This document shows, piece by piece, positions 6,895-56,965 of a stretch of DNA of 64,000 bases. Position 1 is the stretch's first letter. Each line of letters begins with the position of its first letter. Origin of the DNA: Actinomycetota bacterium (lineage in GTDB: Bacteria > Actinomycetota > UBA4738); the NCBI GenBank assembly GCA_050692195.1, contig JBOGVA010000074.1, positions 8,309-72,308 of the forward strand, given 5' to 3'. Below the pieces are notes generated by a model, which saw nothing but the letters and a program-made list of their open reading frames with translations, made no database searches and was not told the DNA's origin. The translations under genes were made by a program, and so were the position numbers.

Positions 6895-6900
6895 TCCAGG

Positions 6901-41534: not shown

Positions 41535-44500
41535 TGCCTGTCTGCCGTCACCCTGGGGGCTCGCCCCGAGGAGGGCGAGGGGATCGTCGCCGGTGACGTC
41601 GTCAACACCGCTGCACGCCTCCAGCAGGCCGCGCCCACCAACGGGGTAGTGGTGGGCGAGGTCACCTTCCGCGCTACCAAGGACGTCATCGAATACGAAG
41701 AAACCGAACCGGTCCTGGCGAAGGGGAAGGCCGAGCCGATCCCGATCTGGCTCGCCAGGGCCCCCCGGACCCGATTCGGTGTGGACGTCGAGCAGGCGGA
41801 TCGCGCCCCGTTCGTTGGGCGGCACGATGAGCTGGAGCTCATGAAACGGACGTTCGCCCGAACGGTGAACGAGTCGGGGGTCCAGGTGGTCACCGTGACG
41901 GGTGAGCCGGGCGTGGGCAAGACGCGGCTGGTCTGGGAGCTCCGAAGCTTCCTCGACAACCAGCCGGGCCTCGTCTACTGGCGCCAGGGCCGCTGCCTCC
42001 CATACGGCGAGGGCGTGACGTTCTGGGCGCTCGGCGAGATGGTCAAGGCCCAAGCCGGGATCCTGGAGTCCGACGACCCGGAGCAGGCCGCACAGAAGAT
42101 CGAGGTGGCGGCGCGGGCGGTGGCCACCGACTCCTCGGAGCAGGAATGGCTCGAGGCCCGGCTCTCTCCACTGGTGGGCATCGGCGGGCCCGACGGCGGC
42201 AGGGTCGCCGAGCGAGACGAGTCCTTCGCGGCCTGGCGTCGGTTCCTGGAGGCCATCGCCGCGCTCCGGCCGCTCGTTCTCGTGTTCGAGGACCTTCACT
42301 GGGCCGACCTGGCGCTGCTCGACTTCGTGGAGCATCTCGTTGACTGGTCCACCGAGGTGCCACTGCTCGTGCTCTGTACTGCCCGGCCGGAGCTGTACGA
42401 GCGGTACCCTGCGTGGGGGGGCGGCAAGCGAAACTCCACCACGCTGGCGCTCCCTCCCCTCGCGGAGCAGGACACGGCGCACCTGATCTCCGTCCTTCTG
42501 TCCCAGGCGGTGCTTCCGGCGGAGGTGCATGCCGCCTTGCTCGAGCGGTGCGGCGGCAATCCCCTCTATGCGGAGGAGTTCGTCCGGATGCTGCTGGACC
42601 GCGGGATCCTGGAACGTCGCGGGCGGACGGTCCGGATCGCGCCGGGCTCCGAGATCCCCGTCCCCGAGACAGTGCAGGCCCTCATCGCCGCCCGCCTCGA
42701 CACCTTGCCTCCCGAGCGGAAGTCACTCCTCCAGGATGGCTCGGTGGTGGGGAAGGTGTTCTGGTCGGGAGCGGTGGCGTTCATGGGCGGGATCGACGAG
42801 AGGACGGCGAGAGCCGAGCTGCACGAGCTGGGCCGCAAGGAACTGCTCCGTCCGGCCAGGACTCCATCGGTGAAGGATCAGGCGGAGTATTCCTTCTGGC
42901 ACATCCTCGTGCGGGACGTCGCCTACGGGCAGATACCTCGGGCCTCGCGAGGTCGCAAGCACCGGCTGGCGGCAGAGTGGTTAGAGCGAGTGGCCGGCGA
43001 CCGGGTGGCCGACCTCGCGGAGTTTCTGGCCTTCCACTACGAGCGAGCTCTGGAGCTGGCCCGGTCGGCTGGCGAGACGGAGGAGGTCCCAGCACTGGAG
43101 GAAGGGACCTTGAGATTCCTCGTCATGGCCGGCGACCGCGCGTTCCATCTCGATCTCGGGAAGGCGTACGAGTTCTACCGGCGGGCGCTCGAGCTCATTC
43201 CGCCCGAGCATCCGGATCGTCCGCGCGTCCTGGCCGAGGCGATGGACGCCGGTGGCGGCGCTGGCCTGCTTTCCCTGGACGAGGCGGAGCCTCGTTTCCT
43301 GGAGGCGATCGAGGCGTTCCGGACCCGGGGCGACCTCCTGGGCGCCGGAGATGCGGCGCTCAGGCTCGCGGGGTGGGTCTGGGTGCGGGGCGAGACTTCC
43401 CGGGCGGCGAGTATCGCTGGGGAGGCCGCCGACCTCCTCGAGCCACACGGCTCCACGCCACAACTCGCCGAGGCCTACAACGAGCTCGCCCGTTACGCCA
43501 CGCTTGGCGGACGGCGGGATGAAGGCCTTCGATGGACCGAGCAGGCGCTCGCGATGGCCCGAGAGCTGGGCATCGGCAGGGTGGAGGCCAGGGCGCTCCA
43601 GTTCCGGGGAATCATCAGATGCGAGCGCGGCGACGTGGGGGGCCTGGAGGACCTCCGGGAATCGCTGCGCATGTGCCTCGAGTTGGGAGTGGGAGTGACA
43701 TACGAGACGGGAACCGCGTACACGAACCTTGGAAGCGAGTTGTGGATGATCCAGGGACCGGCCAGCGCCCTGGAGATCTATCGCGAAGGGGTCGAATTCG
43801 CCACGCGGCGCCGATACGCCGCGCAGGTCGCGTGGATAAGGGCGGAGATGCTCTGGGCGCTGTTCGACCTCGGCGATTGGGACGAGGTGTTGAGAGTCGC
43901 GGACGAGCTGCTCGAGTGGGATCCGGCCGGCGCTCGAACCCAGCAGGGGGTGTTCGCCCTCTCCTACAAGGCCCGGGTGCTCGTTTCGCGAGGCGAGGTG
44001 TCGGAGGCCATTGGTCTCTGCGCCCACCTCCTCCCTCGAGCCAGGACCATCAGGGACCCGCAGGTGCTCGGGCCGGCGCTGGAGGTGGCCGCCCTGGTCG
44101 AGCTGGCCCGAGGGGACCAGGGCGGTGTGCCGGCGGCCGCCGCGTTGATCGAAGAGCTCAACCGAGAGCAAGGTGCGTTGCTGTTGACGCACGGTTTGAC
44201 GGCGGCGAACGCTGCACGTGTGCTCGTTGCCGCCGGAAAGCCGGAGCGGGCGAAGGCGTTCCTGGAGAAGGCGGCCGGGGGAGTCGGGCGCGCGGAACAC
44301 AACGTGCTTACGGGGCGAGCCGTCCTGGCGGAGTCGCTGGGCGATCTGAGGGAAGCGCTGGAGCTGTACTCCGACGCCGCAGCGCAATGGGCCCGCTTCC
44401 GGATCCCGTTCGAGCAGGCTTTGGCTCTGCTCGGGGTAGGGCGGTGCCTGGTGAGCCTGGGCCGACCGGGCGAGGCCGCGGAACCTTTGCGGGAGGCCCG

Positions 44501-44585
44501 CGACATCTTCACCCCGCTCGGAGCTCGGCCCGCGCTCAAAGAGACCGACGAGCTGCTCGAGCGGGCGGTGGCCCGGACGTCCTGA
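41535..44585 (+). CDS. STAND/AAA NTPase-TPR regulator with only the C-terminal half of a class III cyclase domain (5'-truncated paralog of 25650-29315, no SBP domain)
   Basis: In-frame GDVVNTAARLQ...VLAKGKAEP cyclase C-terminus, then GEPGVGKTRL P-loop, DLHWADLALL and long TPR-like helical region; first ATG only at about 41841. Confidence 0.7.
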   Translation, partial: CLSAVTLGARPEEGEGIVAGDVVNTAARLQQAAPTNGVVVGEVTFRATKDVIEYEETEPVLAKGKAEPIPIWLARAPRTRFGVDVEQADRAPFVGRHDELELMKRTFARTVNESGVQVVTVTGEPGVGKTRLVWELRSFLDNQPGLVYWRQGRCLPYGEGVTFWALGEMVKAQAGILESDDPEQAAQKIEVAARAVATDSSEQEWLEARLSPLVGIGGPDGGRVAERDESFAAWRRFLEAIAALRPLVLVFEDLHWADLALLDFVEHLVDWSTEVPLLVLCTARPELYERYPAWGGGKRNSTTLALPPLAEQDTAHLISVLLSQAVLPAEVHAALLERCGGNPLYAEEFVRMLLDRGILERRGRTVRIAPGSEIPVPETVQALIAARLDTLPPERKSLLQDGSVVGKVFWSGAVAFMGGIDERTARAELHELGRKELLRPARTPSVKDQAEYSFWHILVRDVAYGQIPRASRGRKHRLAAEWLERVAGDRVADLAEFLAFHYERALELARSAGETEEVPALEEGTLRFLVMAGDRAFHLDLGKAYEFYRRALELIPPEHPDRPRVLAEAMDAGGGAGLLSLDEAEPRFLEAIEAFRTRGDLLGAGDAALRLAGWVWVRGETSRAASIAGEAADLLEPHGSTPQLAEAYNELARYATLGGRRDEGLRWTEQALAMARELGIGRVEARALQFRGIIRCERGDVGGLEDLRESLRMCLELGVGVTYETGTAYTNLGSELWMIQGPASALEIYREGVEFATRRRYAAQVAWIRAEMLWALFDLGDWDEVLRVADELLEWDPAGARTQQGVFALSYKARVLVSRGEVSEAIGLCAHLLPRARTIRDPQVLGPALEVAALVELARGDQGGVPAAAALIEELNREQGALLLTHGLTAANAARVLVAAGKPERAKAFLEKAAGGVGRAEHNVLTGRAVLAESLGDLREALELYSDAAAQWARFRIPFEQALALLGVGRCLVSLGRPGEAAEPLREARDIFTPLGARPALKETDELLERAVARTS

Positions 44586-44598
44586 GGGTCGCTCCTGG

Positions 44599-44808
44599 TC
44601 AGGCGCCCAGCTCGTAGACCTGGCCCGGGTCCATGTCGAGGCCGTTCATGACCTGCCACAGGGCGGCCAGGGCCTTCTGCGCGTTGCGTCGGGCGAAGGG
44701 CGGTAGGTCGTCGCCGTGCATCTCGATCACGCTCGCCAGCTGCCGGTAGCAGTCTACGAGCTTGCCCTCGGCCCCGGTCAGCTCGACGCCCATGTGGTTC
44801 TCCATCAC
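44599..44808 (-). CDS. small hypothetical protein (69 aa) co-transcribed with the CoA ligase
   Basis: ATGA overlap with the upstream PaaK-like gene stop; acidic; no recognised motif. Confidence 0.5.
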   Translation of the reverse strand: MMENHMGVELTGAEGKLVDCYRQLASVIEMHGDDLPPFARRNAQKALAALWQVMNGLDMDPGQVYELGA

Positions 44809-46163
44809 GTCTGCCTCCGCTCGTCTTCGGTGCCGATCACGATCCGTTCGTCCAGCAATCGCTTGGCCTTCAGCTCGAAGCGGGGGAGCGTGCCGTTCTC
44901 CGCCTGCTTCACCCCGAATCGCAGGCCCTCATGGGACTCGGCCAGCTCCTTCCCGAGTTGCTCAAGCAGTGCGTCGGCATCCGGCCTGGGATCCGGAATC
45001 TCCACCAGGATCTCGATCTCGTCCCGCCGTCCTTCCGCGGTGTACAGGTGGATCTGGAACTCGTCGATCTCGGGATGCTCCCGGATGATGGCCTCCACGG
45101 CCCGGGGGTACACGTTCGTCCCGCGGACCAGCTTCATGTCGTCCACTCGTCCGCGGATCCCGCCGTCGTACAGGTCCCACGTGCGGCCGCACCGGCAGTT
45201 CGTCCCCGGCACTTTTACCACGTAGTCGCGGGTCCGATATCGCAGCACCGGGATGAATCCGCGGCCGAAGGAGGTCACCACCCGCTCGCCCATCTCTCCG
45301 TAGGGGAGCGGCTTGTCGCCTTCGGGGTCCAGGACCTCTTCGATGTAGTTGTCCTCGATGATGTGCGTACCGCCTGGCTGCTCGGCGCACTCGAAGATCA
45401 TGATCGTGCCGAGCTCGGTCATCCCCGCGGTGTCCCCGGCCTTGGCCCCCCACTCGGCCTCGATCAGCTTCTTGGTGGCCGGGATCGACCCGGCCGGCTC
45501 GCCGGAGAGGATCAGCTTCTCGACGGGCCCGGCCGCCAGGTCGATGCCCATCGTCTTGGCCTCCTGGGCCATGCGCAGCGCGTAGGTCGGAGTGGAGCAC
45601 ACGACCGTGGCGCCCATGTCCATGATCTGCTTGACTCGCTGCTCGGTGGTCAGGGCTCCTCCGGGCAGCGTGAGGCAGCCCATCTTCTCGCAGGCGTAGT
45701 GGAGCCCCCAGAAGCCGATGAACGTGCTGTAGCCGAAGGCCACGAAGACCGTGTCCTCCTGGCGTACCCCGAACCCCCACAGCCCGTAGCACCACATCTC
45801 GGCGATCCACTCCCAGTCCTTCATGGAGTCGAGGACCCGGATCGGCGTTCGCCCCGTGGTGCCCGAGGTCATGTGGTAGCGGATGGCCCTCTGGACCGGC
45901 GCTGCCAGGTTGGTGCCGTACGGGGGGCTTTCGAGCTGGCCCTCCATCCAATCGTCCCGAGTCATGAGGGGGATGCGTCTCAGGTCGTCGAGGCCGTTGA
46001 TCGAATCGGGCGTGACCCCGGCGTCGCGAAGCCGCTTCGCCTGCCACGGAACCTGGGCGTCCGCCCACATCACCAGGTTCCTGAGCTTCCGCGTCTGGAG
46101 CGCCTCCACCTGGTCGTGGGGCAGGGTCTCGTGCCGGGGGTTCCAGTACGGCGAGTCGGCCAT
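44805..46163 (-). CDS. phenylacetate-CoA ligase family (PaaK-like) adenylate-forming enzyme
   Basis: MTSGTTGRTP AMP-binding P-loop, overall PaaK architecture; start at MADSPYWN. Confidence 0.85.
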   Translation of the reverse strand: MADSPYWNPRHETLPHDQVEALQTRKLRNLVMWADAQVPWQAKRLRDAGVTPDSINGLDDLRRIPLMTRDDWMEGQLESPPYGTNLAAPVQRAIRYHMTSGTTGRTPIRVLDSMKDWEWIAEMWCYGLWGFGVRQEDTVFVAFGYSTFIGFWGLHYACEKMGCLTLPGGALTTEQRVKQIMDMGATVVCSTPTYALRMAQEAKTMGIDLAAGPVEKLILSGEPAGSIPATKKLIEAEWGAKAGDTAGMTELGTIMIFECAEQPGGTHIIEDNYIEEVLDPEGDKPLPYGEMGERVVTSFGRGFIPVLRYRTRDYVVKVPGTNCRCGRTWDLYDGGIRGRVDDMKLVRGTNVYPRAVEAIIREHPEIDEFQIHLYTAEGRRDEIEILVEIPDPRPDADALLEQLGKELAESHEGLRFGVKQAENGTLPRFELKAKRLLDERIVIGTEDERRQT

Positions 46164-46238
46164 GATCGTCTCCTTCCGCTCGCGGTAGCGACTCGAGCAT
46201 CGTAGCGAGTGCGGACCGCTCGTGGTAAACCGCATCGG

Positions 46239-47384
46239 ATGGCCTTCGCCCTAACGCCGGAGCAGCAGCGGCTGATCGAGGAGACGCGGCAGCTGGCTCG
46301 CGACGTGCTGGCCCCGATCTCCCGCGAGGGGCAACCGGGGCGGGTGAACCGGAATCTGGTCCGCGCCCTCGCCGAGCAGGGCCCGCTGCCTCGGCTGTTT
46401 CCGAAGCGGGCCGGAGGCGCGCGGGAAGGTGACGTGTCGGCGCTCGAGCTCTGCTTGATCCGGGAGGCGCTGGCCCAGGGCTCGACGGAGGCCGAGACGG
46501 CCTTCGCCATGCAGGGATTGGGGGCTTACCCGATCCTTCAGTCCGGGACGGAGGAGCAGGTGGCCAGATGGGTGCCTGCGGTGGCCCGCGGGGAGGCCGT
46601 GGCCGCCTTCGCGCTGACCGAGCCCGAGCACGGATCCGACGCCGCCGCCATCGAGCTTCGGGCAGAGCGTGACGGCGATGGGTATCGCCTGAGCGGCGTG
46701 AAGACGTGGATCTCCAACGCGCCGGACGCGGACGTCTACACTTTGTTCGCTCGGACGACCAGTGAGGTCGGGGCGAAGGGGGTCACGGCGTTCGTGGTCC
46801 CAGGGGACAGCCCCGGCCTCGCCGGGTCATCCATCGAGCTTCTGTCACCCCACCCGATCGGCCGGCTGGAGCTGGATGGTGTACCGGTGGGTTCCGGTCA
46901 CGTGCTCGGCCAACTGGACCAGGGGTTCCGGGTGGCCATGCGGACCCTGAACCTGTTCAGGCCGAGTGTGGGCGCCTTCGCCGTGGGGATGGCCCAGGCC
47001 GCCCTGGATGCGGCCATGGACCACGCGGCCGACCGGCTTGCCTTCGGCCGGCCGATCCGAGAGTTCCAGGCGGTCTCTCATCTGCTGGCCGAGATGGCCA
47101 CCCGCACCGAAGCCGCGCGCGCGATCGTGTACACGGCAGCATCCGCCTACGACGAGCGGCGCCCTGGCGTCACCCGCTCATCGGCCATGGCCAAGCTGTT
47201 CGCCACCGAGACCGCTCAGTTCGTGGTGGACGCGGCGGTCCAGATCCACGGCGCGGCCGCGCTGGAGCGAGGGCACCTCCTCGAGCACCTGTACCGTGAG
47301 GTCCGGGCGCCGCGCATCTACGAGGGAACGTCAGAGATCCAAAGGGAGATCATCGCCCGCGAGCTGTTTCGGCCCCCCGAGTGA
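46239..47384 (+). CDS. acyl-CoA dehydrogenase
   Basis: ACAD motifs (AFALTEPEHGSDAAA, YEGTSEIQREIIAREL); start at MAFALTPEQ. Confidence 0.85.
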   Translation: MAFALTPEQQRLIEETRQLARDVLAPISREGQPGRVNRNLVRALAEQGPLPRLFPKRAGGAREGDVSALELCLIREALAQGSTEAETAFAMQGLGAYPILQSGTEEQVARWVPAVARGEAVAAFALTEPEHGSDAAAIELRAERDGDGYRLSGVKTWISNAPDADVYTLFARTTSEVGAKGVTAFVVPGDSPGLAGSSIELLSPHPIGRLELDGVPVGSGHVLGQLDQGFRVAMRTLNLFRPSVGAFAVGMAQAALDAAMDHAADRLAFGRPIREFQAVSHLLAEMATRTEAARAIVYTAASAYDERRPGVTRSSAMAKLFATETAQFVVDAAVQIHGAAALERGHLLEHLYREVRAPRIYEGTSEIQREIIARELFRPPE

Positions 47385-47439
47385 GCCTCCCCCAGTTGAC
47401 GACACCCGGCGTTTGCCTGGCTCTAGGTGAGATGTCTTT

Positions 47440-47487
47440 CATCCCGATTCGGGATGTTGAACATCGCAATTCTAGATGTTATACATC
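47440..47487. promoter_or_regulatory. operator array: three palindromes (CATCCCGA-T-TCGGGATG; GATGTT-G-AACATC; GATGT-TAT-ACATC) overlapping a sigma70-like promoter TTGAAC-N17-TATACA
   Basis: Perfect inverted repeats read directly from the sequence in an unusually AT-rich spacer; palindromes 2 and 3 are about 22 bp centre to centre; the -10 ends about 8 nt before the ATG at 47494. Confidence 0.6.
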
Positions 47488-47493
47488 TTTCCA

Positions 47494-48088
47494 ATGAGTC
47501 TAGACAGCGAGTTTGGTGCGGAGCGAGTGGACGAGCTGCTTCGTGCCTTGGAGGAACAGCTCAGGGGCACTTGGTGCCCGGTTCGAGCTCGTCATCATCG
47601 GAGGAACTGCGCTCCTGGCGCTCGGGCTAATCAGGAGGGCAACCACGGATGTGGATGTCGTGGCCCTCGTCGGTCGAGGTGTGCTCATTCCGGCGGAGCC
47701 ACTGCCCTCCCCCCTCGTTGAGGCAGCCATGAGGGTCGCCCGCGACTTTCGCTTGGCGGGCGGCTGGCTGAACGCAGGACCCGCGGATCTTCTTCGCTTC
47801 GGGCTTCCTGAGGGGTTCGACACTCGTCTGCGAACTCGAACCTATGGCCCTGCTCTGGTCGTCCACTTCGCCAGCCGCTTCGACCAGATCCATTTCAAGT
47901 TGTACGCGATCGTGGACCAGGGCGCTGGCCGGCACGAAGCCGACCTTCGCGCTTTGGAGCCTTCTCCCCAGGAGTTGTTAGCTGCGGCTCGCTGGGCCCG
48001 TACCCACGATCCTTCAGAGGGCTTCAAACAACAGCTCGTGCTAGCACTTGCTCATCTCGGGGTGGCTGATGCAGACGTCGGACCTTAG
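47494..48088 (+). CDS. AbiEii/MenT-like (DUF1814-type) nucleotidyltransferase-fold protein; frame disrupted at a G4 run (47564-47567)
   Basis: GGTALLALGLIRRATTDVDVV matches the GGxAL...RxS/TxDxD NTase signature; N-terminus MSLDSEFGAERVDELLRALEEQLR is in frame 1, the NTase core is in the -1 frame; removing one G restores ...EEQLRALGARFELVIIGGTAL. Confidence 0.55.
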
Positions 48089-49082
48089 GCAGCGCGTCCA
48101 AGCCACGCTCATCGACTTCGTCTGGAGCCAGTGGGTCCAGATGGGAGTCTCAGGCTCTACCGTTCGGCGGGATCGGTGGGCAGCCGACCCTGAGGCCCTC
48201 CTCCTCTTCACCGTTCACGCGGCACGCCGCGACCCCAGGCTATTCGACGAGGTGCTCGACTGGCTGCGGCTGAACGGGAAGCTTCTGAGCGTTCAGCGTC
48301 TGCGAAATTTGGCCGAAGCCGATGATGAGACCCCGCGGCTGATTGGCGCTGCACTCGCGTGGGCGCGGTCACAGAACCCGACGCTCCGATCACGGTTGCC
48401 GATCGACGAGGCGGCCTCGGCTGGTGAGCCAAAGGATCTATTCCTAGCTGACGGGGAAGCCCTCTTGGCTGGTACGCCGGATCCCATCTTTCTCCGCTTC
48501 GGATATCGCCGTCCCCGAGCGAAGCCGAGCTGGAAGTCTCAAGCTCCCAATCCGCTGGCACCGATCAACCTGGCATTCCGGCTTCGTCTCGCGTTCGGTG
48601 TCGGAAGCAGGTCGGAGGTCCTTCGCTACCTACTCACGACCGAACACCCCGAGGCCTCTACCCAGCAGATCGCAGAGGCGACTGCGTTTGCCAAGCGCAA
48701 CGTCAGTGACATCCTCCTTGGGCTGGCCGATGCTGGTGTGGTCGAGACGCGGCAGCGAACGAACGAACGAGTCTACTGGGCCGACCGACGTCGCTGGGCA
48801 TTCTTGCTCGGGGTGGGCATTCGAGAGCTACCAGACTTCGTCGACTGGATCCGGCTGCTGACGGCCATCCGGATCGTTCTCGCGTGGCTGGATGAAGATG
48901 CCAAGGTCGAACGATCCGACTACCTGCGCTCGAGCGAGGCTAGGCGGCTTCTCGATCGCATCCGACCGGACCTGCTCGCCTCAGGGGTGGACGTGGCCGA
49001 CGATCGGAGTGTTGGGACCGAGCACTGGACCGCCTTGGAGGAGACTCTGGAGCGCACGCTGAGGAAGCTGCGTCCTCTCTAG
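48069..49082 (+). CDS. 338-aa protein with internal winged-helix DNA-binding domain, unknown family (candidate cognate regulator/partner of the NTase)
   Basis: Overlaps the NTase gene end by 20 nt; wHTH-like segment STQQIAEATAFAKRNVSDILLGLADAGVVETRQRTNERVYW at residues about 210-270; lower GC than genome. Confidence 0.55.
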   Translation: MQTSDLRQRVQATLIDFVWSQWVQMGVSGSTVRRDRWAADPEALLLFTVHAARRDPRLFDEVLDWLRLNGKLLSVQRLRNLAEADDETPRLIGAALAWARSQNPTLRSRLPIDEAASAGEPKDLFLADGEALLAGTPDPIFLRFGYRRPRAKPSWKSQAPNPLAPINLAFRLRLAFGVGSRSEVLRYLLTTEHPEASTQQIAEATAFAKRNVSDILLGLADAGVVETRQRTNERVYWADRRRWAFLLGVGIRELPDFVDWIRLLTAIRIVLAWLDEDAKVERSDYLRSSEARRLLDRIRPDLLASGVDVADDRSVGTEHWTALEETLERTLRKLRPL

Positions 49083-49104
49083 TGGAGGTCGCGGCGCACG
49101 AAGA

Positions 49105-49121
49105 CATCACCCTAGGTGATG
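49105..49121. repeat. 17-bp perfect palindrome CATCACC-CTA-GGTGATG downstream of the wHTH gene
   Basis: Read directly from sequence; shares the GATG/CATC core with the upstream operators. Confidence 0.4.
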
Positions 49122-49263
49122 TTGGCGGTTGTGGGCTGGCTCGGATCGGGCGGCTGTCTGCGACTTCGGGGATCTGTTTGGCGAAGTGGCCCTTCGCGAA
49201 GCAGTCGTTGCCGATGCAACCTACTCGTGAGGTCCGAGTGACGTCCCCCTCTGGTCCCGTTGG

Positions 49264-49920
49264 CTAGAGAGAGCCAACGGGGTATGGGATTCCTACTGTA
49301 GACAACACGAGCGTATGCAGAGTTTCTCCTTGCGGCAGCGAATCGGTCGGCGAATACATCTGAATATAGATTTCGAGCCCCTGCGTCTCCCACGCGAGCC
49401 GTACGTCATCCGTGTAGACGGTAACCGCTTCCACCTCGCCAAGAAGCCAGTACGTGCCGTTCGCCACAGCCTCTTGAAGTGTCTCTAGAGAGCTCGAGTC
49501 GTCGTCCGATGTGTCATCCGCCCACATGTAGAAGGTCGTTGCCCCACCTCTCACCAGAAAGGCACTTCCGGTGTCCCGGATCAGGGCGTAGCCCGACTCT
49601 TTGACAACCTCTCGAACCCAGACGGCTTCCTCAGAGCATTCCGACCAGGGGCCATAGTCGCATTGGCTGGATGGGCTTGGAGTGGATGGCAACCTCGAGC
49701 TGGGGGATCCGAGAACGGAGCTTCCAGACAATGACCTTTCCCCCGGCCGGAATGCGCTCCACAGGCCAAAGACCATTCCCGCCAAGATCGTCAGAGCTAC
49801 CACTCCGGCGAGCAAACGCCGACTGCTCTGCCGACGGCGGACTCGCTGCAGTGTTCTGGCGAACGCCTCATCGGGCTCCGGGTCGAACGAGGCCACTCCT
49901 CGATCCAAGATCTCCTTCAT
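49264..49920 (-). CDS. single-pass membrane anti-sigma-factor-like protein
   Basis: 4-nt overlap with the upstream ECF sigma gene; N-terminal cytoplasmic segment, one TM (LLAGVVALTILAGMVFGLW), extracytoplasmic Ser/Pro-rich domain. Confidence 0.6.
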   Translation of the reverse strand: MKEILDRGVASFDPEPDEAFARTLQRVRRRQSSRRLLAGVVALTILAGMVFGLWSAFRPGERSLSGSSVLGSPSSRLPSTPSPSSQCDYGPWSECSEEAVWVREVVKESGYALIRDTGSAFLVRGGATTFYMWADDTSDDDSSSLETLQEAVANGTYWLLGEVEAVTVYTDDVRLAWETQGLEIYIQMYSPTDSLPQGETLHTLVLSTVGIPYPVGSL

Positions 49921-50438
49921 TTGATCTCCTCTCCAAACTGCCTCCGAAGCGCTGATCTACCCCGGTGCATCCTCACCCGAACGGTTGCCGCTTTGATGCC
50001 AAGGATTCGGCCTGCCTCCTCTGGGTCCAAACCGAGCCATTCCACGAGAACCAGCGCTTGGCGCTGACCTGCAGGGAGTGAGGACAATGCTGTTAGGACG
50101 CGATTCTTGGCTTCGACAGCAGACGACGGGTCGGAGTCGGGTTCTCTGGCAAAGAGCAGCCGCCGACGGACCAGTGACCACCGAATTCTCTTGCGATTTA
50201 GGTTGAGAGCTGTTCGGAACAAGTAGCCAGCGGGAGATGCCATGTTACGGACGGTCTCCCAGCGTTCGTATACGCGGACGAATGCTTCCTGAGCAATGTC
50301 CTCCGCCTCCAACCGATTGCCGCTGAGCAACAGAGCAGCACGGGCTAGGCGTGGATACCAGGCCCTAAAAAACACCTGGAACTCCAGATCAGCCCCAGCC
50401 TTAGCCACGTGGAGGTGCTCGCTCTGCTCGACCACCAT
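49917..50438 (-). CDS. ECF-type RNA polymerase sigma-70 factor
   Basis: Region 2 (FRAWYPRLARAALLL...AEDIAQEAFVRVY) and region 4 HTH (LPAGQRQALVLVEWLGLDPEEAGRILGIKAATVRVRMHRGRSALR). Confidence 0.85.
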   Translation of the reverse strand: MVVEQSEHLHVAKAGADLEFQVFFRAWYPRLARAALLLSGNRLEAEDIAQEAFVRVYERWETVRNMASPAGYLFRTALNLNRKRIRWSLVRRRLLFAREPDSDPSSAVEAKNRVLTALSSLPAGQRQALVLVEWLGLDPEEAGRILGIKAATVRVRMHRGRSALRRQFGEEIK

Positions 50439-50590
50439 TGCCTAACATGAACCCCTAACCCCCCGCCCACGTTTCCGGTCCGGACGAATTCGCCGTCAAT
50501 CTTCCAGACCCATCGTCCAGATGGCGTTGGATCGGATTCCAGAGAGTTCCCGTGAACTCTGCCGGACACGTACGGGCCGGAAGCGGCTTT

Positions 50591-51067
50591 CTAGCCCTCC
50601 GAGGTCTCCAGTCCTCGGTCGGGGATCACGGCGACGCCCATCAGCTCGACCTTGGAGTGCGGATCGAGGAGCCCGCTCACCTCCAGAAGGCTCTCGGCCG
50701 GGTAATGCCTGCCGAAATGTCGCCTGTACACCTCGCCGACCTCCCGCATGGAGGCCCGGTACTCTGCGACGTCGGTCACGAAGATCTGAATCGACACCAG
50801 GTCCTGAGGCAACCCGCCGGCGGCGGCGAGGGCCTCCACCACGTTGCCGCAGGCCTGGTCGAACTGCTGGATGAGCGAGTCGCCGGCCAGCGATCCGTCC
50901 GGCTTGTGCCCGGCCTGGCCTCCCAGGTAGACGACCAGGCCCGGGGCGGGAACGACCGCGTGGGCGAACCCCACGGCAGGCGGCAGCCAGGCGGGATTCA
51001 GGATGAGGTGGGGGCTCACCGGTGGCCTGCGCTCGGAGGCGCCGGCCGACAGGTCCTCTTCGCCCAT
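50591..51067 (-). CDS. RidA/YjgF-family protein
   Basis: About 158 aa from the ATG overlapping the hydratase stop (TGATG); conserved RidA C-terminal signature (PARSTVEV-like region SLLEVSGLLDPHSKVELMGVAV). Confidence 0.8.
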   Translation of the reverse strand: MGEEDLSAGASERRPPVSPHLILNPAWLPPAVGFAHAVVPAPGLVVYLGGQAGHKPDGSLAGDSLIQQFDQACGNVVEALAAAGGLPQDLVSIQIFVTDVAEYRASMREVGEVYRRHFGRHYPAESLLEVSGLLDPHSKVELMGVAVIPDRGLETSEG

Positions 51068-51894
51068 CAGCGGCCGGTCCAGTTCGGGTCCTGCCCGCTG
51101 CGGAAGGCACGATAGAACTCGGCGTGATCGGCGCTCTTCATCAGCAGGGCCTGGGCCATGGCCTCCAGCTCCAGGGACCCGGCCAGATCCATGTCCAGCT
51201 CGCGAGACAGAAGGATCTTGGTGGTGGCGTACGCCAGGGCCGGGCCCGAGGCGAGGCGACGGGCCAGCTCCATGGCCTTGCCGGACAGCTCCGGATCCTG
51301 CACGACCCCCCCGGCCAGGCCGATCTCTACGGCCCGCGTTGCGTCCACCTTTTCCCCCAGGATCAACAGTTCGGCGGCGCGGCCGAAGCCTACCAGTCGG
51401 GGCAACAGATAGGCGGAGCCCATGTCGGCCCCTGCCAGCCCGACCTTGGTGAACAGAAAGGAGAACGACGCCGAGGCCGCAAGCAGCCTGAAGTCCGCCG
51501 CCAGGGCGATGACCGCTCCGGCTCCGGCCGCGATGCCGTTGACGGCTGCGATGATCGGGATGGGGCATTCCCTCATCCGCTGCACCACCGCCCCGGTCAT
51601 GCGGCTGAAGTCCAGGACGTCCTTTGGCGTCATCTCCAGAAGCCGGCCGATGATGTCGTGCACGTCACCGCCCGAGCAGAACCCCCGCCCCGTCCCGGTG
51701 ATGATCAGGGCCCTGACGTCGCCCCGGTGTGGGAGCTCGGCAAGGAGGTCCCTGAGATCGGCGTAGACGTCGAATGTCAGGGCGTTCAGCCGGTCCGGCC
51801 GGTCGAAGGTCACTGTGGCCACGCCGTCGCCCAGCTCGAACCCGAAGTGCTCCCAGCGCTCGGTGAATCCGGGGGAAGCCCGGAACGGGCTCAT
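51067..51894 (-). CDS. enoyl-CoA hydratase/isomerase (crotonase family)
   Basis: 275 aa; oxyanion-hole motifs (ITGTGRGFCSGGDV; AAVNGIAAGAGAVIALAAD). Confidence 0.85.
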   Translation of the reverse strand: MSPFRASPGFTERWEHFGFELGDGVATVTFDRPDRLNALTFDVYADLRDLLAELPHRGDVRALIITGTGRGFCSGGDVHDIIGRLLEMTPKDVLDFSRMTGAVVQRMRECPIPIIAAVNGIAAGAGAVIALAADFRLLAASASFSFLFTKVGLAGADMGSAYLLPRLVGFGRAAELLILGEKVDATRAVEIGLAGGVVQDPELSGKAMELARRLASGPALAYATTKILLSRELDMDLAGSLELEAMAQALLMKSADHAEFYRAFRSGQDPNWTGR

Positions 51895-51952
51895 CTCGAA
51901 GACGCCCGGGGGCGGTCCGATGGGTCGAACGCCTCTTCTGACGGCTGCGCCG

Positions 51953-53191
51953 TCACTCGAAGGCCTCGAAGCCGGTGATGGCGTGTCCCAGGATCAGCGT
52001 GTGGATCTCGCTCGTGCCTTCGTACGTGAGCACGGACTCCAGGTTGTTCATGTGTCTGATCACGGGGTACTCGAGCGTGATCCCGTTGGCGCCCAGGATC
52101 GAGCGGGCCTCCCGGGCGATCCGGAGAGCCTCCCGGACGTTGTTGAGCTTGCCCAGGCTTACCTGCTGTGGGGCGAGCCGCCCCTCATCCTTCATCCGCC
52201 CGAGGTGCAGAGCCAGGAGCATCCCCTTGTTCAGCTCGAGCAACATGTTGACCAGCTTCTCCTGGGTGAGCTGGAAGCCTCCGATCGGCTTGCCGAACTG
52301 GACCCGAGTCTTCGAATACTCGAGCGCGGCCTCGTAGCACGAACGGGCCGCTCCCATGACTCCCCACACGATCCCGTACCGGGCCTCGGTGAGGCACGAG
52401 AGCGGCCCGCGCATCCCGGTCACCTCGGGAAGGACCGCCTCCTCCGGGAGGCGGCACTCGTCGAAGACCAGCTCGGACGTGACCGAGGCACGAAGAGAGA
52501 GCTTGCGCTCGATGTCCTTCGTGGCGAAGCCGGGGGTTCTTCGGGGAACCAGGAACCCGCGGACCCCCCGTTCGGTTTGGGCCCACACCACCGCGACATC
52601 GGCGATCCCCCCGTTGGTGATCCACATCTTCGTGCCGGAGAGGATCCAGTCAGTCCCGTCTCTGCGGGCCGCCGTCCTCATTCCCGCGGGGTCGCTTCCG
52701 AAGTCGGGCTCGGTGAGCCCGAAGCACCCGATGGCCTCTCCCGCCGCCATCTGGGGGAGCCACTCCCGTTTCTGTTCCTCGGACCCGTACTTCCAGATCG
52801 GGAACATGGCCAGCGAACCCTGCACGGAGATCGCGCTTCGGAACCCGCTGTCCCCCGCTTCCATCTCCATGCAGGCCAGGCCGTAGCTCACCGCGTTCGT
52901 CCCTGCGCAGCCGTAGCCGGTGAGGTGCATCCCCAGCAGGCCGAGCGCACCGAGCTCCTGATAAGCCTCCCTGGGGAACTCCGCGCGCTCGAACCATTCC
53001 TCGATCCCGGGCATGACCCGGTCGACGACGAACTCGCGAACCGCGTCCCGGATCATCCGCTCCTCGTCGATGAGGAGTGCGTCGACGTCCAGGAAGTCCA
53101 GGGGCTTTGGGGCCGGCCCCGGGACCTCGGGCGTTTCCTTGGGGGCACCCTGGCCCCGGCGCGTGCCGGTCCTCGCCATCGTGGTCTCCAC
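51953..53191 (-). CDS. glutaryl-CoA dehydrogenase-like acyl-CoA dehydrogenase
   Basis: 412 aa; ACAD fold with GCDH-like N-terminus (LDFLDVDALLIDEE) and C-terminal YEGTSEIHTLILG. Confidence 0.85.
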   Translation of the reverse strand: METTMARTGTRRGQGAPKETPEVPGPAPKPLDFLDVDALLIDEERMIRDAVREFVVDRVMPGIEEWFERAEFPREAYQELGALGLLGMHLTGYGCAGTNAVSYGLACMEMEAGDSGFRSAISVQGSLAMFPIWKYGSEEQKREWLPQMAAGEAIGCFGLTEPDFGSDPAGMRTAARRDGTDWILSGTKMWITNGGIADVAVVWAQTERGVRGFLVPRRTPGFATKDIERKLSLRASVTSELVFDECRLPEEAVLPEVTGMRGPLSCLTEARYGIVWGVMGAARSCYEAALEYSKTRVQFGKPIGGFQLTQEKLVNMLLELNKGMLLALHLGRMKDEGRLAPQQVSLGKLNNVREALRIAREARSILGANGITLEYPVIRHMNNLESVLTYEGTSEIHTLILGHAITGFEAFE

Positions 53192-54057
53192 TTTATACGC
53201 GTGTCAGGGCGGTAAGCTTCGCCTCGACTCCTGCTCCGAGGAGGTGTCGCATCGACCAAGGGACCTCAGGGGACCAGCCTGGGAAAGAGAGAGAAGAGCT
53301 CTCCTACGGGAGGTATCTCCGCATCCCGGAGCTGCTGAGCCTGCAGCAGCCTCTGTCCCAGCCGCTTGCCCACGACGAGCAGCTGTTCATCGTGGTCCAC
53401 CAGTCCTTCGAGCTGTGGTTCCGGCTGATCCTCTTCGAGCTGGAGAGCGTGCGGGCGGCCCTTTTCGCGGGCCAGACCTTCCCCGCCCGGCACTTTCTGA
53501 AGCGTGTCCAGGCCATCGAGCGGATGCTCCTGGACCACATCGGGATCATCGAATCGATGTCGCCACAGGATTTCCTGGAGTTCAGGGGGAACCTGGCCCC
53601 CGCCAGCGGCTTCCAGTCCGTCCAGTTCCGCGAGATCGAGTTCATCTCCGGGCTGAAGGAACCCGGCCTGATGGCCCGTTTGGCGGAGACGCCGGAGGAG
53701 CGGGCCCGCCTGGAGCGCCGGCTGTCGGAGCCGACCCTGTGGGACGCCTTCAGCGCCCTCATGGAGTCGAACGGGCTCCCCATGCCGGGGGGAGAGGAGA
53801 ATGTGGAAGCCCGGCGGGCCAGCCTGCTCAAGATGATGCGGGACAAGGACGCCTACGCGGAGCTGTTCTATACGGCGGAGTCACTGCTCACCCACGACGA
53901 GCTGTTCACGCTGTGGCGCCAGCACCACATCCTGATGGTGGAGCGCCAGATCGGGTCCAAGACGGGGACGGGGGGCACGGCCGGGGTCTCGTATCTCCGC
54001 TCCACCCTGGACAAGCGCTTCTACCCGGAGCTCTGGGAGCTGCGCAGCTACCTCTGA
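53077..54057 (+). CDS. kynA: tryptophan 2,3-dioxygenase (start codon uncertain)
   Basis: LSYGRYLRIPELLSLQQPLS...HDEQLFIVVHQSFELWFRLILFEL and C-terminal TGGTAGVSYLR motifs of TDO; the only upstream in-frame ATG (53077) overlaps the divergent ACAD gene by about 115 nt, so the true start may be a non-canonical codon near 53230. Confidence 0.75.
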   Translation: MRRRPGSPGALGPAPGPRAFPWGHPGPGACRSSPSWSPLYTRVRAVSFASTPAPRRCRIDQGTSGDQPGKEREELSYGRYLRIPELLSLQQPLSQPLAHDEQLFIVVHQSFELWFRLILFELESVRAALFAGQTFPARHFLKRVQAIERMLLDHIGIIESMSPQDFLEFRGNLAPASGFQSVQFREIEFISGLKEPGLMARLAETPEERARLERRLSEPTLWDAFSALMESNGLPMPGGEENVEARRASLLKMMRDKDAYAELFYTAESLLTHDELFTLWRQHHILMVERQIGSKTGTGGTAGVSYLRSTLDKRFYPELWELRSYL

Positions 54058-54965
54058 GGGCGTTTCGACCCGCTCTCGCGCCCGGTCACTTTGTTCAAGA
54101 CCCGACGGGTCCGGGCCTTCAGGTGACTCCGCTCCTCTTGCATCATCAGCCGGATGCTCTCTTCGAAGGTCATGCCTCCTCGTTCCGGGAACACGGCCCG
54201 GCGGCGCTGGGACACACAGAGAAACAGGTCGGCCTCCGTCGCTCGCGGCAGCAGGTCCTGAAGGCCCTCCTTGCGCATGGCCTCGATGGCCGGAAGGTAG
54301 ACGTGGTCGTACCAATCGGCGGCGACCTCCTCTATCGCCAGGACCTCGCCGCGTTCAGACATCAGGTTGAACCCGTGAAGCTTCACGTGCTCCAGGAGTT
54401 CGATGTACCCGGGTGGACGGCTGAACTCGATCCGAGCCTCGGGCCGGGCTCGTTCCAGGGCGCTCCCCTGCATGAACATCCGTTCCTGCTCGGCCAGGAT
54501 GATCCGCCCGATGTCGGCATCCGCGGGGAAGCGCACGGTGGTCCTGAGCCTGGTGACCTCGGCGTCGATGGTCTCCATGCCGCGCTGCCTGGCGATGGCC
54601 ACCCGGTGGTGTCCGTCGACGACGAAGTACGCGTCGCCCACCTGGTACACCACGATGGGAGGAAAGTCTCCGCCGGGAAAGAGCTGCTCGACCCGTTTCC
54701 ACCGGGTCTCCAGCTCCGGCCGTCGGGGAAGGAAGTCTCGGTCGAAGTCCCTGTCCCGCTCGACCGTCCCCACGATCCGCTTGACGGGGATGGGTCGGAT
54801 GCCGAGGTAGCTCTGCTCGAAGATCCCCAGACGCCTCTGCACGTCGCCGAGCGACAGCAGTTCAGCCGTGTCGTCCCGCTTCACGATGTCCGTGAGCCGG
54901 CGAAAGGTCTTCTTTCGCTGGGCCTTCTCGAACGTCGAGGGTCCGGGTGGCTCTCGCCAGCTCAT
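54048..54965 (-). CDS. ParB/sulfiredoxin-like nuclease-domain protein
   Basis: From MSWREPPG; VVDGHHRVAIARQRG ParB-like motif; ATGA overlap with the upstream phosphoesterase gene. Confidence 0.6.
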   Translation of the reverse strand: MSWREPPGPSTFEKAQRKKTFRRLTDIVKRDDTAELLSLGDVQRRLGIFEQSYLGIRPIPVKRIVGTVERDRDFDRDFLPRRPELETRWKRVEQLFPGGDFPPIVVYQVGDAYFVVDGHHRVAIARQRGMETIDAEVTRLRTTVRFPADADIGRIILAEQERMFMQGSALERARPEARIEFSRPPGYIELLEHVKLHGFNLMSERGEVLAIEEVAADWYDHVYLPAIEAMRKEGLQDLLPRATEADLFLCVSQRRRAVFPERGGMTFEESIRLMMQEERSHLKARTRRVLNKVTGRESGSKRPQR

Positions 54966-55615
54966 CGCTCCAACTCCAGCACCCGGTGTCCGACCGCGTT
55001 GACGACCTGCGTAGGCCCCAGGCGGCGATCGGGACGCGGAGATCCGTAGGGATGCACGTGACCATGAACCATCAGCTTGGGCGAGAGCTTCCCGACGAGG
55101 CGGTGGAAGGCGGCGAATCCACGGTGGGCCGGGTCGTCCTCGTCGCCCAGACCGAGGGGCGGAGCATGCGTGATGAGGACATCGATTCCCCGGCCGTTCC
55201 GAAAGCCCTTCAGCCTGGCCCTGATCTCCAGGCGGAGGGCGCGCCACCTCATCTGCGACTGTGTGTACTGATTGGGGCCCTCGCGGTAGCGCGCGGAGCC
55301 GCCGAGACCAGCCACTCGGACCCCGGCCGCCTCGACGATCCGGCCGTCGACGAAGGTGCAGCCGGGAGGGCCGGGAGGGTCCACGTACTGATCCAGGAAC
55401 GGGGACGGCTCCAACGTGGGGGCGGTGGCCCGCAGGTCCGGATCGTGGTTGCCCGGCACGTACAGCAGCGGCACGTCCGTCATCGAGACCAGGCGTTCGA
55501 GGTAGTCGAACGGGAGATCTCCGCACGACAGCACCAGGTCCGGGCGGAGCTCCCGCAGGCGCTCGCCGTACAAGGTCTCCTCGACCTCATCGGCGACGGC
55601 CAGGATGCGCGTCAT
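54962..55615 (-). CDS. calcineurin-like metallophosphoesterase
   Basis: 217 aa; metal-ligand motifs (CGDLPF, GNHD, GHVH). Confidence 0.8.
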   Translation of the reverse strand: MTRILAVADEVEETLYGERLRELRPDLVLSCGDLPFDYLERLVSMTDVPLLYVPGNHDPDLRATAPTLEPSPFLDQYVDPPGPPGCTFVDGRIVEAAGVRVAGLGGSARYREGPNQYTQSQMRWRALRLEIRARLKGFRNGRGIDVLITHAPPLGLGDEDDPAHRGFAAFHRLVGKLSPKLMVHGHVHPYGSPRPDRRLGPTQVVNAVGHRVLELER

Positions 55616-55760
55616 CGAGCCTCCGCTTGCTCGCCCCGGCGCCGCCGAGCGTGCGTTCGCATCGTTCTTCCACCATAGCTCAGGCCGACCCGATACCTGC
55701 TGGGTGGATCTGCGTCCGCCCGGGAACCCGCGGCGGCCTCACTCCGTCAAAGGAGCCAGG

Positions 55761-56657
55761 ATGAAACGGAATGCCAGGAGGCGTGTGCCCTGGACGGCGC
55801 TGGTTCCGCTCCTGACCGTGCTGGCTGGTGCCTGCGCCGGCCTCGCCACCGGGAGAGGGGCCGATGGGATCGACCATCCGACGGACCCAGGCCGGTTGGT
55901 GCTACGGGTGGAGCAGGGTGGCGGCTTCGTTCCCGTCGAGTACGCGCTGAGGGACGTCCCTATCTTCTCCCTGTACGGCGATGGCCTCATCGTGACGACG
56001 GGGCCTCAGATCGCCATCTATCCCGGGCCCGCCCTTCCGAACCTCGTGGCGACCCGGATCTCCGACGCGGGGATCCAGGCGATCCTCCGGGCCGCCCGGG
56101 ACGCGGGCCTTCTGGGGCGAGATCGCCACTACGACAATCCCGGGATCGCCGACGCGGCTACCACCACGTTCGCCGTGGTCGCCGAGGGGAGGCGCCACGT
56201 CGTCTCCGCGTACGCGCTGGGGGTCGACGAGCCCCCCGGGCTCATCCCGGAGGACGAGCGGGAGGCCCGCCGGAAGCTGAGCGAGTTCCAGGCCAGGCTG
56301 TCCGATCTGCGCCGTTGGCTCCCCGAGGGATCGGTGGGAGAGGAGCGCCCCTTCGAATTCGACGAGCTCAGGATCTTCGTTCGCCAGGGGGCCCAGGCGC
56401 CCCAGGACGAGGGTCTCGAGCAGCCGGAGATGAAGTGGCCCCTCCAGGATGGCTTGGCCGGCTTCGGCCTGGAGGTCCTGGATCTGGAGTTCCGGTGTGG
56501 GTCGATGGAGGGCGCCTCACTGGAGACGCTGCTGCCGCTCGTCCAGAACGCCAACGAGCTGACCCCCTGGCGAGATGGCGGGGAGCTATACAGCCTGATC
56601 TTCCGGCCGCTCCTGCCGGACGAATCCGGCTGCGAGGGCATCCCGAGCCCTTATTAG
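55761..56657 (+). CDS. secreted lipoprotein, unknown function
   Basis: Signal peptide with lipobox-like LAGACAG after MKRNARRRVPWTALVPLLTV; RBS AAAGGAG upstream. Confidence 0.6.
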   Translation: MKRNARRRVPWTALVPLLTVLAGACAGLATGRGADGIDHPTDPGRLVLRVEQGGGFVPVEYALRDVPIFSLYGDGLIVTTGPQIAIYPGPALPNLVATRISDAGIQAILRAARDAGLLGRDRHYDNPGIADAATTTFAVVAEGRRHVVSAYALGVDEPPGLIPEDEREARRKLSEFQARLSDLRRWLPEGSVGEERPFEFDELRIFVRQGAQAPQDEGLEQPEMKWPLQDGLAGFGLEVLDLEFRCGSMEGASLETLLPLVQNANELTPWRDGGELYSLIFRPLLPDESGCEGIPSPY

Positions 56658-56923
56658 CTGTCGGGCGAGATCCGAAGCTGCTTGTCTCCCTTGCACGGTC
56701 TCGAAAATACGGCCGATGGACTGTTGACAATCCCGTGAGGCGTGCGGCAGTCTTCCCTAATCCTATGGATCGGATGGGAATTTGATCCGAACTCGGTGCT
56801 TCGGCCTGGTGGGGGAGATGATCCCCTGCTGCTGCTGTTGTCGCGTTTTCTGCGCCCTGTGTAAGGGCGCGGAGGTGATGGCGCGGCCTTAAGCAGTAGA
56901 AGCCGGAGATCGGCGAAGTTGAA

Positions 56924-56951
56924 GGGGCCGCTCGGGCGGCCCCCTTTCTTT
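56924..56951 (+). terminator. intrinsic-terminator-like hairpin (GGGGCCGC-TCGG-GCGGCCCC) plus U-tract, at the end of a ~300-nt leader immediately 5' of the sirA RBS
   Basis: Perfect 8-bp GC stem read from sequence, followed by CTTTCTTT; the AGGAG RBS and ATG (56966) follow within 15 nt. Confidence 0.55.
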
Positions 56952-56965
56952 ACAGGAGACAAGAC

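Follow-up and report, generated by a model that had tools for sequence, protein, structure and literature searches.

Comparative analysis of a 64,000-nucleotide stretch of an Actinomycetota genome (assembly GCA_050692195.1, contig JBOGVA010000074.1, positions 8,309 to 72,308; hereafter, the window) revealed a pair of overlapping genes, here called A and B, in a short inserted island. A encodes a minimal nucleotidyltransferase, and B encodes a larger winged-helix protein. We propose, with moderate confidence, that the A-B operon is a toxin-antitoxin-type module with A the putative toxin and B the putative antitoxin and autorepressor. The proposal draws on the strict linkage of the two genes, the loss of A but never of B, a conserved palindromic signal upstream of A and the AbiEii/MenT-type motifs of A.

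Of the 84 loci that were selected by the presence of B, 80 have a homologue of A as the gene directly preceding it. Among 80 metagenome loci chosen via A, an unbroken B is present in all 56 loci with at least 1 kb of downstream DNA, and the shorter contigs with enough room downstream show the start of B. Both genes are intact in 64 loci, and in 57 of these the end of A and the start of B show an overlap of exactly 20 nt, the same as in the window. A profile of B has relatives in 364 species-representative genomes, mostly from soil Thermoleophilia. Among the best 80, 47 belong to Solirubrobacterales, Gaiellales, Thermoleophilaceae and Conexibacter. Relatives of B are also present in other Actinomycetota and in a few bins labelled Nitrospira, Gemmatimonadales, Polyangiales and Limnocylindrales. 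An exhaustive profile search produced 2,307 clusters at 50% identity (E <= 1e-3).

The genomic contexts of A-B differ even among the closest relatives. When flanking open reading frames (ORFs) were clustered, no neighbour family recurred in more than 8 of 80 loci, which speaks against a conserved third gene; the gene calling used here was crude, and spurious ORFs are common in high-GC DNA. The neighbours include integrase genes and their fragments, restriction-modification genes, a gene for a PIN protein, a divergent AbiEi_4 gene, and ATPases of the AAA_14/DUF4143 and ATPase_2/DUF234 types. Thus A-B has the generic features of toxin-antitoxin systems, that is, a tight bicistronic operon, variable context and a putative autoregulatory operator, and is a widespread, mobile, self-contained and translationally coupled two-gene unit.

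Several individual loci deserve mention. In locus L165, whose B is 64% identical to that of the window, a 170-aa gene of the AbiEi_4 family (1571-2083, minus strand) is divergent and situated just upstream of A, and a gene for an AAA_14/DUF4143 ATPase follows B. Thus a canonical AbiEi-type gene adjoins a non-canonical nucleotidyltransferase pair. A metagenome-assembled genome of Actinomycetes (L078) contains two tandem A-B modules, at 5463-6912 and 7995-9439, approximately 1 kb apart. The 518-aa protein P0436 looked like an A-B fusion and was considered as Rosetta-stone evidence, but its sequence is a frameshifted read-through and it was discarded.

The two genes are not lost with equal frequency. 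We compared approximately 77 B-selected loci that had room upstream with the 56 A-selected loci. A is damaged next to an intact B in approximately 13 of the 77 loci, the frameshifted A of the window itself not being counted: L040 and L068 have no A, L056 and L065 retain remnants of it, and about nine more loci have a frameshifted copy. In contrast, B is missing or interrupted in none of the 56 loci, although it is the longer target (Fisher's exact test, p = 6e-4). After exclusion of nanopore-based assemblies the counts are 8 of 45 and 0 of 56 (p = 1e-3). Loss of A and constant retention of B is the pattern expected of a pair in which A does harm once B is gone, whereas B on its own does none, and the asymmetry fits the assignment of A as the candidate toxin and B as the candidate antitoxin and autorepressor. 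As regards the individual loci, in L040 and L068, both from Solirubrobacterales, B (at 6001) is an intact orphan, the 1.5 kb upstream of it showing no trace of A.

The same data bear on the opposite assignment, as in HEPN/MNT (type VII) systems, where A would nucleotidylate and silence a harmful effector B. The gene order agrees with it: the antitoxin is encoded by the first gene in most toxin-antitoxin operons and in mntA-hepT, the minimal nucleotidyltransferase is the neutralising component there (PMC7641770), and A is the first gene and overlaps B. However, an intact B without a working A should then be lethal, and this configuration is observed in L040, L056, L065, L068, the window and other loci. 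Further, homologues of B do not match the HEPN family in Pfam, there is no histidine among the 35 invariant columns of their alignment and thus no Rx4-6H motif, and no nuclease-like fold was found for B. We consider the reversed assignment very unlikely.

The region upstream of A contains three 13-bp palindromes of the form GATG-N5-CATC (Table 1), whose starts are exactly 22 bp apart. Two of them overlap the elements of a promoter-like pair, TTGAAC-17-TATACA, whose -10 box ends 8 nt before the ATG codon of A. No Shine-Dalgarno sequence is visible upstream of A, and the geometry of the promoter makes a leaderless or near-leaderless transcript plausible. A scan of positions 47300-50700 with a strict sigma-70 consensus called no promoter, as the -10 box is TATACA. 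Hence the promoter assignment rests on the geometry and on conservation across loci.

This conservation is considerable. The upstream sequence was usable in 145 loci, and in 104 of them an exact GATG-N5-CATC site occurs at least once in the 100 nt preceding A, the background expectation being 0.003 per equivalent stretch. Two or more sites were observed in 38 loci; they are spaced at 22 bp in 38 cases and at 44 bp in 6, and no other spacing occurs. In the proximal site the central bases are usually T-rich and then A-rich (TnTAA or TnTAT), which coincides with a TANNNT -10 box. Such phased sites look like the signature of a dimeric winged-helix repressor that would bind its own promoter cooperatively on one face of the DNA. 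We infer that this repressor is B, as it is the only DNA-binding protein invariably present and AbiEi sets a precedent for autorepression (PMC3985639, PMC7319586).

In the window, the reading frame of A is interrupted by a one-base insertion, and the catalytic motifs are situated in the next frame (ORF 47513-48088, 191 aa). With one G removed, A encodes 197 amino acids and can be aligned with hundreds of homologues of approximately 196 aa over 97-100% of its length, at 62-74% identity. The identical frameshift is present in an independent Logan assembly of SRR27067773 (contig L001, 2878 bp, corresponding to window positions 47474-50351), where the gene call for A is a truncated product of 181 aa. 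As both assemblies have the frameshift, it is either a real lesion or a systematic read error. All invariant family residues 3' of the frameshift are intact in the window, and thus the lesion should be recent. The frameshift displaces helix alpha-1, a conserved element of the nucleotidyltransferase fold, and hence the product of A in this genome is probably inactive.

The original prediction assigned A to the DUF1814/AbiEii/MenT nucleotidyltransferases by the hallmark GGTAL...RxTxDxD, and the hallmark is indeed there, as IIGGTAL and R48-x-T50-x-D52-x-D54. The motifs of DUF1814 proteins are hG[G/S], a long spacer of about 15 residues, and DhD with an arginine in motif II; motif III has a lysine between hydrophobic residues (KLxAaxxR in COG4849), and motif IV is a +DxxD pentad (PMC3985639). 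According to Dy et al. (PMC3985639), the arginine and threonine of motif II and the long spacing between the glycines and the aspartates are specific to DUF1814, and other pol-beta nucleotidyltransferases do not have them. Motif I of A, I35-G36-G37, followed by a 14-residue spacer, is invariant in 35 homologues. Motif II is R48-A-T50-T-D52-V-D54, with the family-specific arginine, and its R, T, D and D are invariant in the same set. The context of motif III, F-K135-L-Y-A-I-V-D-Q, retains K, L and A, and K135 is invariant. In the motif IV region, R146-H-E-A-D150, the residues H, E and D are invariant, and D150 may be the counterpart of AbiEii D192 or MenT1 D152. The residue two positions before the first catalytic aspartate is the acceptor of antitoxin-induced autophosphorylation in AbiEii (T65), MenT1 (T39) and MenT3 (S78) (PMC11375011; bioRxiv 10.64898/2026.01.19.700257), and this position in A is occupied by T50. 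Overall, the invariant residues R48, T50, D52 and D54 match motif II of AbiEii and MenT and the phospho-acceptor, and the invariant K135 and D150 match motifs III and IV in part (PMC3985639; bioRxiv 10.64898/2026.01.19.700257).

At the level of families, the frame-corrected A matches Pfam DUF6036 (PF19502) at 24.8 bits, above the gathering cut-off of 23.6, and the uncorrected 191-aa ORF scores 21.5 bits, below it. The match covers chiefly the N-terminal catalytic strand-helix region. DUF6036 is found in 34 of 35 homologues of A (E <= 0.01), and several of them are labelled 'DUF6036 family nucleotidyltransferase' by NCBI. Within the searchable literature, a full-text search for DUF6036 or PF19502 retrieved no function, partner or paper. 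Thus the family of A has already been catalogued, as one of unknown function, and it is the partner and the architecture that are undescribed. The closest solved folds include ANT(2'') (8.3), MenT4 (7.9), MenT1 (7.8), MenT3/TglT (6.6) and LnuA (6.6), so that the fold by itself does not separate A from antibiotic nucleotidyltransferases. A HMMER search against PDB chains yielded no match to MenT at the sequence level, and nothing useful for A was found in PHROGs and NCBIfam. By these data, A is an AbiEii/MenT-like nucleotidyltransferase from a distinct minimal family bordering DUF1814.

B had been described as a much larger winged-helix protein encoded downstream, in the reverse of the canonical order, and this description holds. 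Pfam families of AbiEi match none of 38 homologues of B, and likeness to AbiEi is also absent in the fold search. The alignment of these homologues has 35 invariant positions distributed over three regions. The model of B (predicted local distance difference test, pLDDT, 89.9; predicted template modelling score, pTM, 0.90) consists of an N-terminal five-helix domain (residues 3-102), a poorly conserved linker, a central ArsR-like winged helix (approximately 165-246) and a C-terminal three-helix domain (residues 260-334). The flanking helical domains are candidates for the parts that bind A. In family scans the winged helix is ArsR/TrmB-like and spans residues 180-250 approximately; otherwise, searches in Pfam, NCBIfam and PDB returned generic winged helix-turn-helix matches only, with no Pfam family for B, and PADLOC gave weak matches to PDC-M05A and Csa3, confined to the winged helix. 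Thus B represents an uncatalogued protein family. Four homologues of B (P0367, P0371, P0383, P0384) are 450-775 aa long and have C-terminal DUF1508 and DUF2188, or DUF4238; these are either real fusions or run-on gene calls.

Another explanation would be that A is a benign small-molecule nucleotidyltransferase, for instance an enzyme of aminoglycoside or lincosamide resistance of the ANT(2'') or Lnu type, and B is its dedicated regulator, with no toxin-antitoxin function. B does have a classical winged helix of the ArsR/MarR type, and the conserved operator would suit any autoregulated operon. However, motif II of A has the DUF1814-specific arginine and threonine, and the spacing between G and D is long (PMC3985639). 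The pairing of A and B is strictly obligate, with a fixed overlap; A is repeatedly lost or frameshifted with B retained, and the reverse is never observed; and B contains two additional conserved domains, rich in invariant charged residues, for which a simple repressor would have no use. On these grounds the benign enzyme seems unlikely.

If A-B is a toxin-antitoxin-type module, it could operate as follows. A would arrest growth by adding nucleotides to the 3' ends of tRNA, by analogy with MenT and AbiEii. B is translationally coupled to A via the conserved overlap. The winged helix of B most likely binds the GATG-N5-CATC sites over the -35 and -10 boxes and represses the operon, as the conservation of the sites suggests. 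The N- and C-terminal helical domains of B would neutralise A either by binding it or, in the manner of MenA1 and AbiEi, by making it autophosphorylate at the invariant Thr50. In the genome considered here, the toxin is probably dead owing to the +1 frameshift, and B would survive as an orphan regulator or antitoxin. A more specific claim is that A-B constitutes a family of its own among the nucleotidyltransferase systems of toxin-antitoxin or abortive-infection type, in which B, a structurally novel 337-aa protein with a central winged helix encoded downstream of the toxin, both represses via the 22-bp-phased operators and neutralises, possibly via Thr50. We put it forward tentatively, as one possibility.

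With the same mechanism, the biological role of A-B might be abortive infection or phage defence, as opposed to that of a housekeeping or addiction-type toxin-antitoxin pair. AbiE, the closest characterised relative, is a phage defence system (PMC3985639); some loci adjoin the restriction-modification, PIN, AbiEi_4, AAA_14/DUF4143, ATPase_2/DUF234 and integrase genes listed above; and the insertion in the window is polymorphic between close strains. However, A has no match in PADLOC, that of B is weak and limited to the winged helix, and no consistent defence-island neighbourhood was observed. A role specifically in defence would be compatible with the toxin-antitoxin reading; we regard it as rather doubtful.

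A number of observations weigh against the toxin-antitoxin interpretation itself. When only clear deletions are counted, the asymmetry of loss is 4 of 77 versus 0 of 56 and is not significant (p = 0.14). Some of the frameshifted copies of A come from nanopore assemblies and may reflect sequencing errors, as homopolymers are often misread there; the result on loss partly depends on frameshift calls in metagenome-assembled genomes. A was expected to match an AbiEii-type profile after correction of the frame. It does match DUF6036 above the cut-off, but the score with AbiEii/DUF1814 (PF08843) is 21.3 bits, just below the gathering cut-off of 22.5, and the match spans only positions 9-43 of the 238 in the profile. 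Since the AbiEii profile nevertheless matches 29 of 35 homologues at E <= 0.01 (the best value being 2.7e-6), the family of A can be described as a borderline relative of AbiEii. Motif III of A lacks the aromatic residue and the arginine of KLxAaxxR, and motif IV is RHExD, without the first aspartate of +DxxD. PADLOC, including its AbiE models, does not recognise A. B has no detectable similarity to any known antitoxin in sequence and fold searches. A search of IMG/VR returned no relative of B, and searches of PLSDB returned neither of the two proteins; PHROGs gave no meaningful matches that would indicate carriage by phages. Finally, toxicity, neutralisation and DNA binding are all predictions from comparison of sequences.

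The A-B operon is situated in a foreign, horizontally acquired insertion (Table 1), which the original prediction had noted as a lower-GC island. The segment 47385-50590 has a GC content of 61.3%, and no other 3.2-kb stretch of the window is as low; the mean of the window is 67.4% (the standard deviation for 3.2-kb windows is 1.6%); the left and right flanks have 69.0% and 67.2%, respectively. The GC content at third codon positions (GC3) is 66% in A, 73% in B, 67% in the membrane protein gene and 63% in the sigma factor gene of the island, as compared to 86-91% in five flanking metabolic genes. The predicted four-gene anatomy and the gene coordinates agree with the ORF list and the family scans.

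Table 1. Features of the A-B island and its flanks (positions in the window).
Feature	Position	Strand	Remarks
Acyl-CoA dehydrogenase	46209-47384	+	Left neighbour of the island; ORF list and family scans
Inserted island (A, B, membrane protein, ECF sigma)	47382..50590	.	3209 bp; empty-site blastn, GC, GC3
Operator-like palindrome 1, GATGTCTTTCATC	47431..47443	.	First of three, 22 bp apart
Operator-like palindrome 2, GATGTTGAACATC	47453..47465	.	Overlaps putative -35 box TTGAAC (47457-47462)
Operator-like palindrome 3, GATGTTATACATC	47475..47487	.	Overlaps putative extended -10 box TGnTATACA (47477-47485)
Gene A, overall	47494 (ATG) to 48088 (stop)	+	Open frame interrupted
Gene A, 5' part (codons 1-24, helix alpha-1, frame 1)	47494..47566	+	Translation MSLDSEFGAERVDELLRALEEQLR agrees with the N-termini of intact homologues
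GGGG run with one-base insertion (+1 frameshift)	47564..47567	+	Deletion of one G restores the protein
Gene A, 3' part (residues 25-197, frame 2, nucleotidyltransferase core)	47567..48088	+	
Gene A, core residues G36-G37, R48, T50, D52	47600-47605, 47636, 47642, 47648		
Gene A, core residues D54, K135, D150	47654, 47897, 47942		
Gene B, putative antitoxin and autorepressor	48069..49082	+	337 aa; start ATG 48069 by alignment of 38 homologues
Hairpin CCCGTTGGCT-AGAGAG-AGCCAACGGG	49255..49280	.	Perfect 10-bp stem, 6-nt loop; read from the sequence
Single-pass membrane protein, putative anti-sigma	49264..49920	-	218 aa; ATGA start/stop overlap with the sigma gene
ECF-type sigma factor	49917..50438	-	173 aa; Sigma70_r2 9.4e-12, Sigma70_r4_2 8.1e-15
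RidA	50591-51010	-	ORF list and family scans; followed by enoyl-CoA hydratase

The empty site was identified directly, and comparison with it gives 47382-50590 for the island, so that the coordinates of the original prediction are essentially exact. Relatives of the flanking acyl-CoA dehydrogenase reach 95-96% protein identity, and in three metagenome contigs (L168-L170) a 96%-identical dehydrogenase gene abuts ridA, the island being absent; the order after the dehydrogenase is RidA, enoyl-CoA hydratase, second acyl-CoA dehydrogenase. In a blastn comparison with L168, the window segments 41547-47381 and 50591-58000 align at 91-94% identity, and the 17 bp at 7588-7604 of L168 occupy the position of the 3209 bp of the window. 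The island replaces the last six codons of the dehydrogenase gene, so that the protein in the window is 6 aa shorter; the dehydrogenase and RidA genes overlap by 4 nt in close relatives. A-B is a conserved mobile unit with the hallmarks of toxin-antitoxin systems and not a pair of housekeeping genes, an alternative raised with the original prediction. Target-site duplications or terminal repeats of at least 8 bp were sought at the ends of the island and not found, and the island contains no recombinase or integrase gene.

A 77%-identical relative (L171) has an unrelated gene at the same junction (8225-8749), encoding 174 aa with no Pfam match. Hence this convergent junction tolerates insertions, and it seems to be an insertion hot spot. 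The Logan contig L001 ends inside the island, falling short of the left junction by approximately 90 nt and of the right one by approximately 240 nt, and therefore both junctions are seen in the metagenome-assembled genome only; these breaks could reflect heterogeneity of strains in the sample, with the island present in some and absent in others.

The island also contains a gene for a sigma factor of the extracytoplasmic function (ECF) type (TIGR02937, 64.2 bits with the cut-off 42.9), a group 4 sigma-70 protein consisting of regions 2 and 4 only, and a gene for a membrane protein. The latter protein has no match in Pfam, NCBIfam, PADLOC and PHROGs, and no anti-sigma domain such as zf-HC2 or RskA; it is a putative anti-sigma factor by synteny, the start/stop overlap and the single transmembrane helix. 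A hairpin straddles the stop codon of the membrane protein gene, between the convergent B and sigma operons, and may be a bidirectional terminator; a terminator scan missed it because it has no T-run.

It had been suggested that A-B is linked to ECF control. In this case all four genes would form one unit, with the sigma and anti-sigma factors controlling A-B or responding to it, and the genes indeed share one 3.2-kb insertion with low GC3 throughout. However, the sigma and membrane protein genes are adjacent to A-B in none of approximately 160 other loci, and a tblastn search of the fetched loci with both proteins returned the copy from the window and unrelated ECF genes (25-39% identity, 5 loci). 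Besides, A-B has a sigma-70-like promoter and operator of its own, and the two gene pairs are convergent with the hairpin between them. The linkage was thus rejected for lack of co-occurrence beyond the window, and a four-gene unit is extremely unlikely. The sigma factor and the co-transcribed membrane protein are an independent passenger, and the island is a recent insertion with two unrelated cargoes.

Toxins of the MenT/AbiEii type are a recently opened field, with modification of tRNA 3' ends and antitoxin-induced autophosphorylation as its themes. To our knowledge, all characterised systems of this kind place the antitoxin upstream, be it of the COG5340, COG4861 or MenA1 type. The A-B family is large, has the reversed order, a partner without known relatives and an unusually clear conserved operator, and thus offers testable predictions. 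If the proposal is true, B would be a third class of partners for DUF1814-like toxins, in addition to COG5340/AbiEi and COG4861/MenA3, the autophosphorylation mechanism induced by antitoxins would be known for one more, unrelated fold and for Thermoleophilia, most of which are uncultured, and functions would be assigned to DUF6036 and to the B family, which has no Pfam entry. On the other hand, the function is a prediction, there are many predicted toxin-antitoxin families already, and the window has what is probably a pseudogene copy. For this particular genome the message is modest: a recent insertion with a probably inactivated putative toxin gene and an unrelated ECF pair as a passenger.

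Among characterised systems, AbiE and MenAT come closest to A-B. AbiE is a type IV/VII toxin-antitoxin and abortive-infection system composed of a DUF1814/COG2253 nucleotidyltransferase (AbiEii) and a COG5340 antitoxin (AbiEi). In both AbiE and A-B, the nucleotidyltransferase has hG[GS], a long spacer, R-x-T-x-D-h-D, a lysine in a KLxA context (motif III being partial in A) and a conserved aspartate further downstream. Both have a bicistronic operon whose promoter is overlaid by inverted repeats, a partner that combines a winged helix with an additional domain, and a mobile and patchy distribution. However, in AbiE the regulator precedes the nucleotidyltransferase (PMC3985639), whereas the order of A and B is reversed, and only the promoter and the operator are present upstream of A, with no gene of the COG5340, COG4861 or MenA type. 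A is shorter, 197 aa as compared to the 238-position AbiEii profile, and below the Pfam cut-off. B is unrelated to the AbiEi families, has 337 aa, and its winged helix is central rather than N-terminal. The operator of A-B is a 13-bp palindrome repeated every 22 bp, whereas abiE has 23-bp inverted repeats. How unusual the gene order of A-B is depends on the source. The Discussion of PMC11375011 states that the 'DUF2253 and DUF4849' nucleotidyltransferases of the DUF1814 superfamily are typically upstream of predicted regulators. However, in the source cited there, PMC3985639, the regulator precedes the nucleotidyltransferase, and the groups are named COG2253 and COG4849; the two papers are thus inconsistent on this point.

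As regards the MenAT systems of Mycobacterium tuberculosis (MenT1, MenT3, MenT4), the length of A is similar to that of MenT1 (a chain of 195 residues in 8an4), and its threonine two residues before the first catalytic aspartate is at the position of MenT1 T39 and MenT3 S78, but its partner is unrelated to MenA and encoded downstream. With the type VII system HEPN/MNT (HepT-MntA), A-B shares a minimal nucleotidyltransferase gene in the first position, overlapping its partner. However, B has no HEPN motif, the pattern of losses marks the nucleotidyltransferase as the dispensable or harmful component, and the fold neighbours of A are MenT, ANT(2'') and Lnu rather than MntA.

In HigBA, MqsRA and HicAB the toxin gene is the first one, and the antitoxin encoded downstream is a helix-turn-helix protein that autoregulates the operon via palindromes in the promoter. 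The toxins of these systems are RNases, and the antitoxins are small, approximately 100-150 aa. A-B has the same arrangement, with the putative toxin first and the DNA-binding partner second, but here the putative toxin is a nucleotidyltransferase and the partner is much larger.

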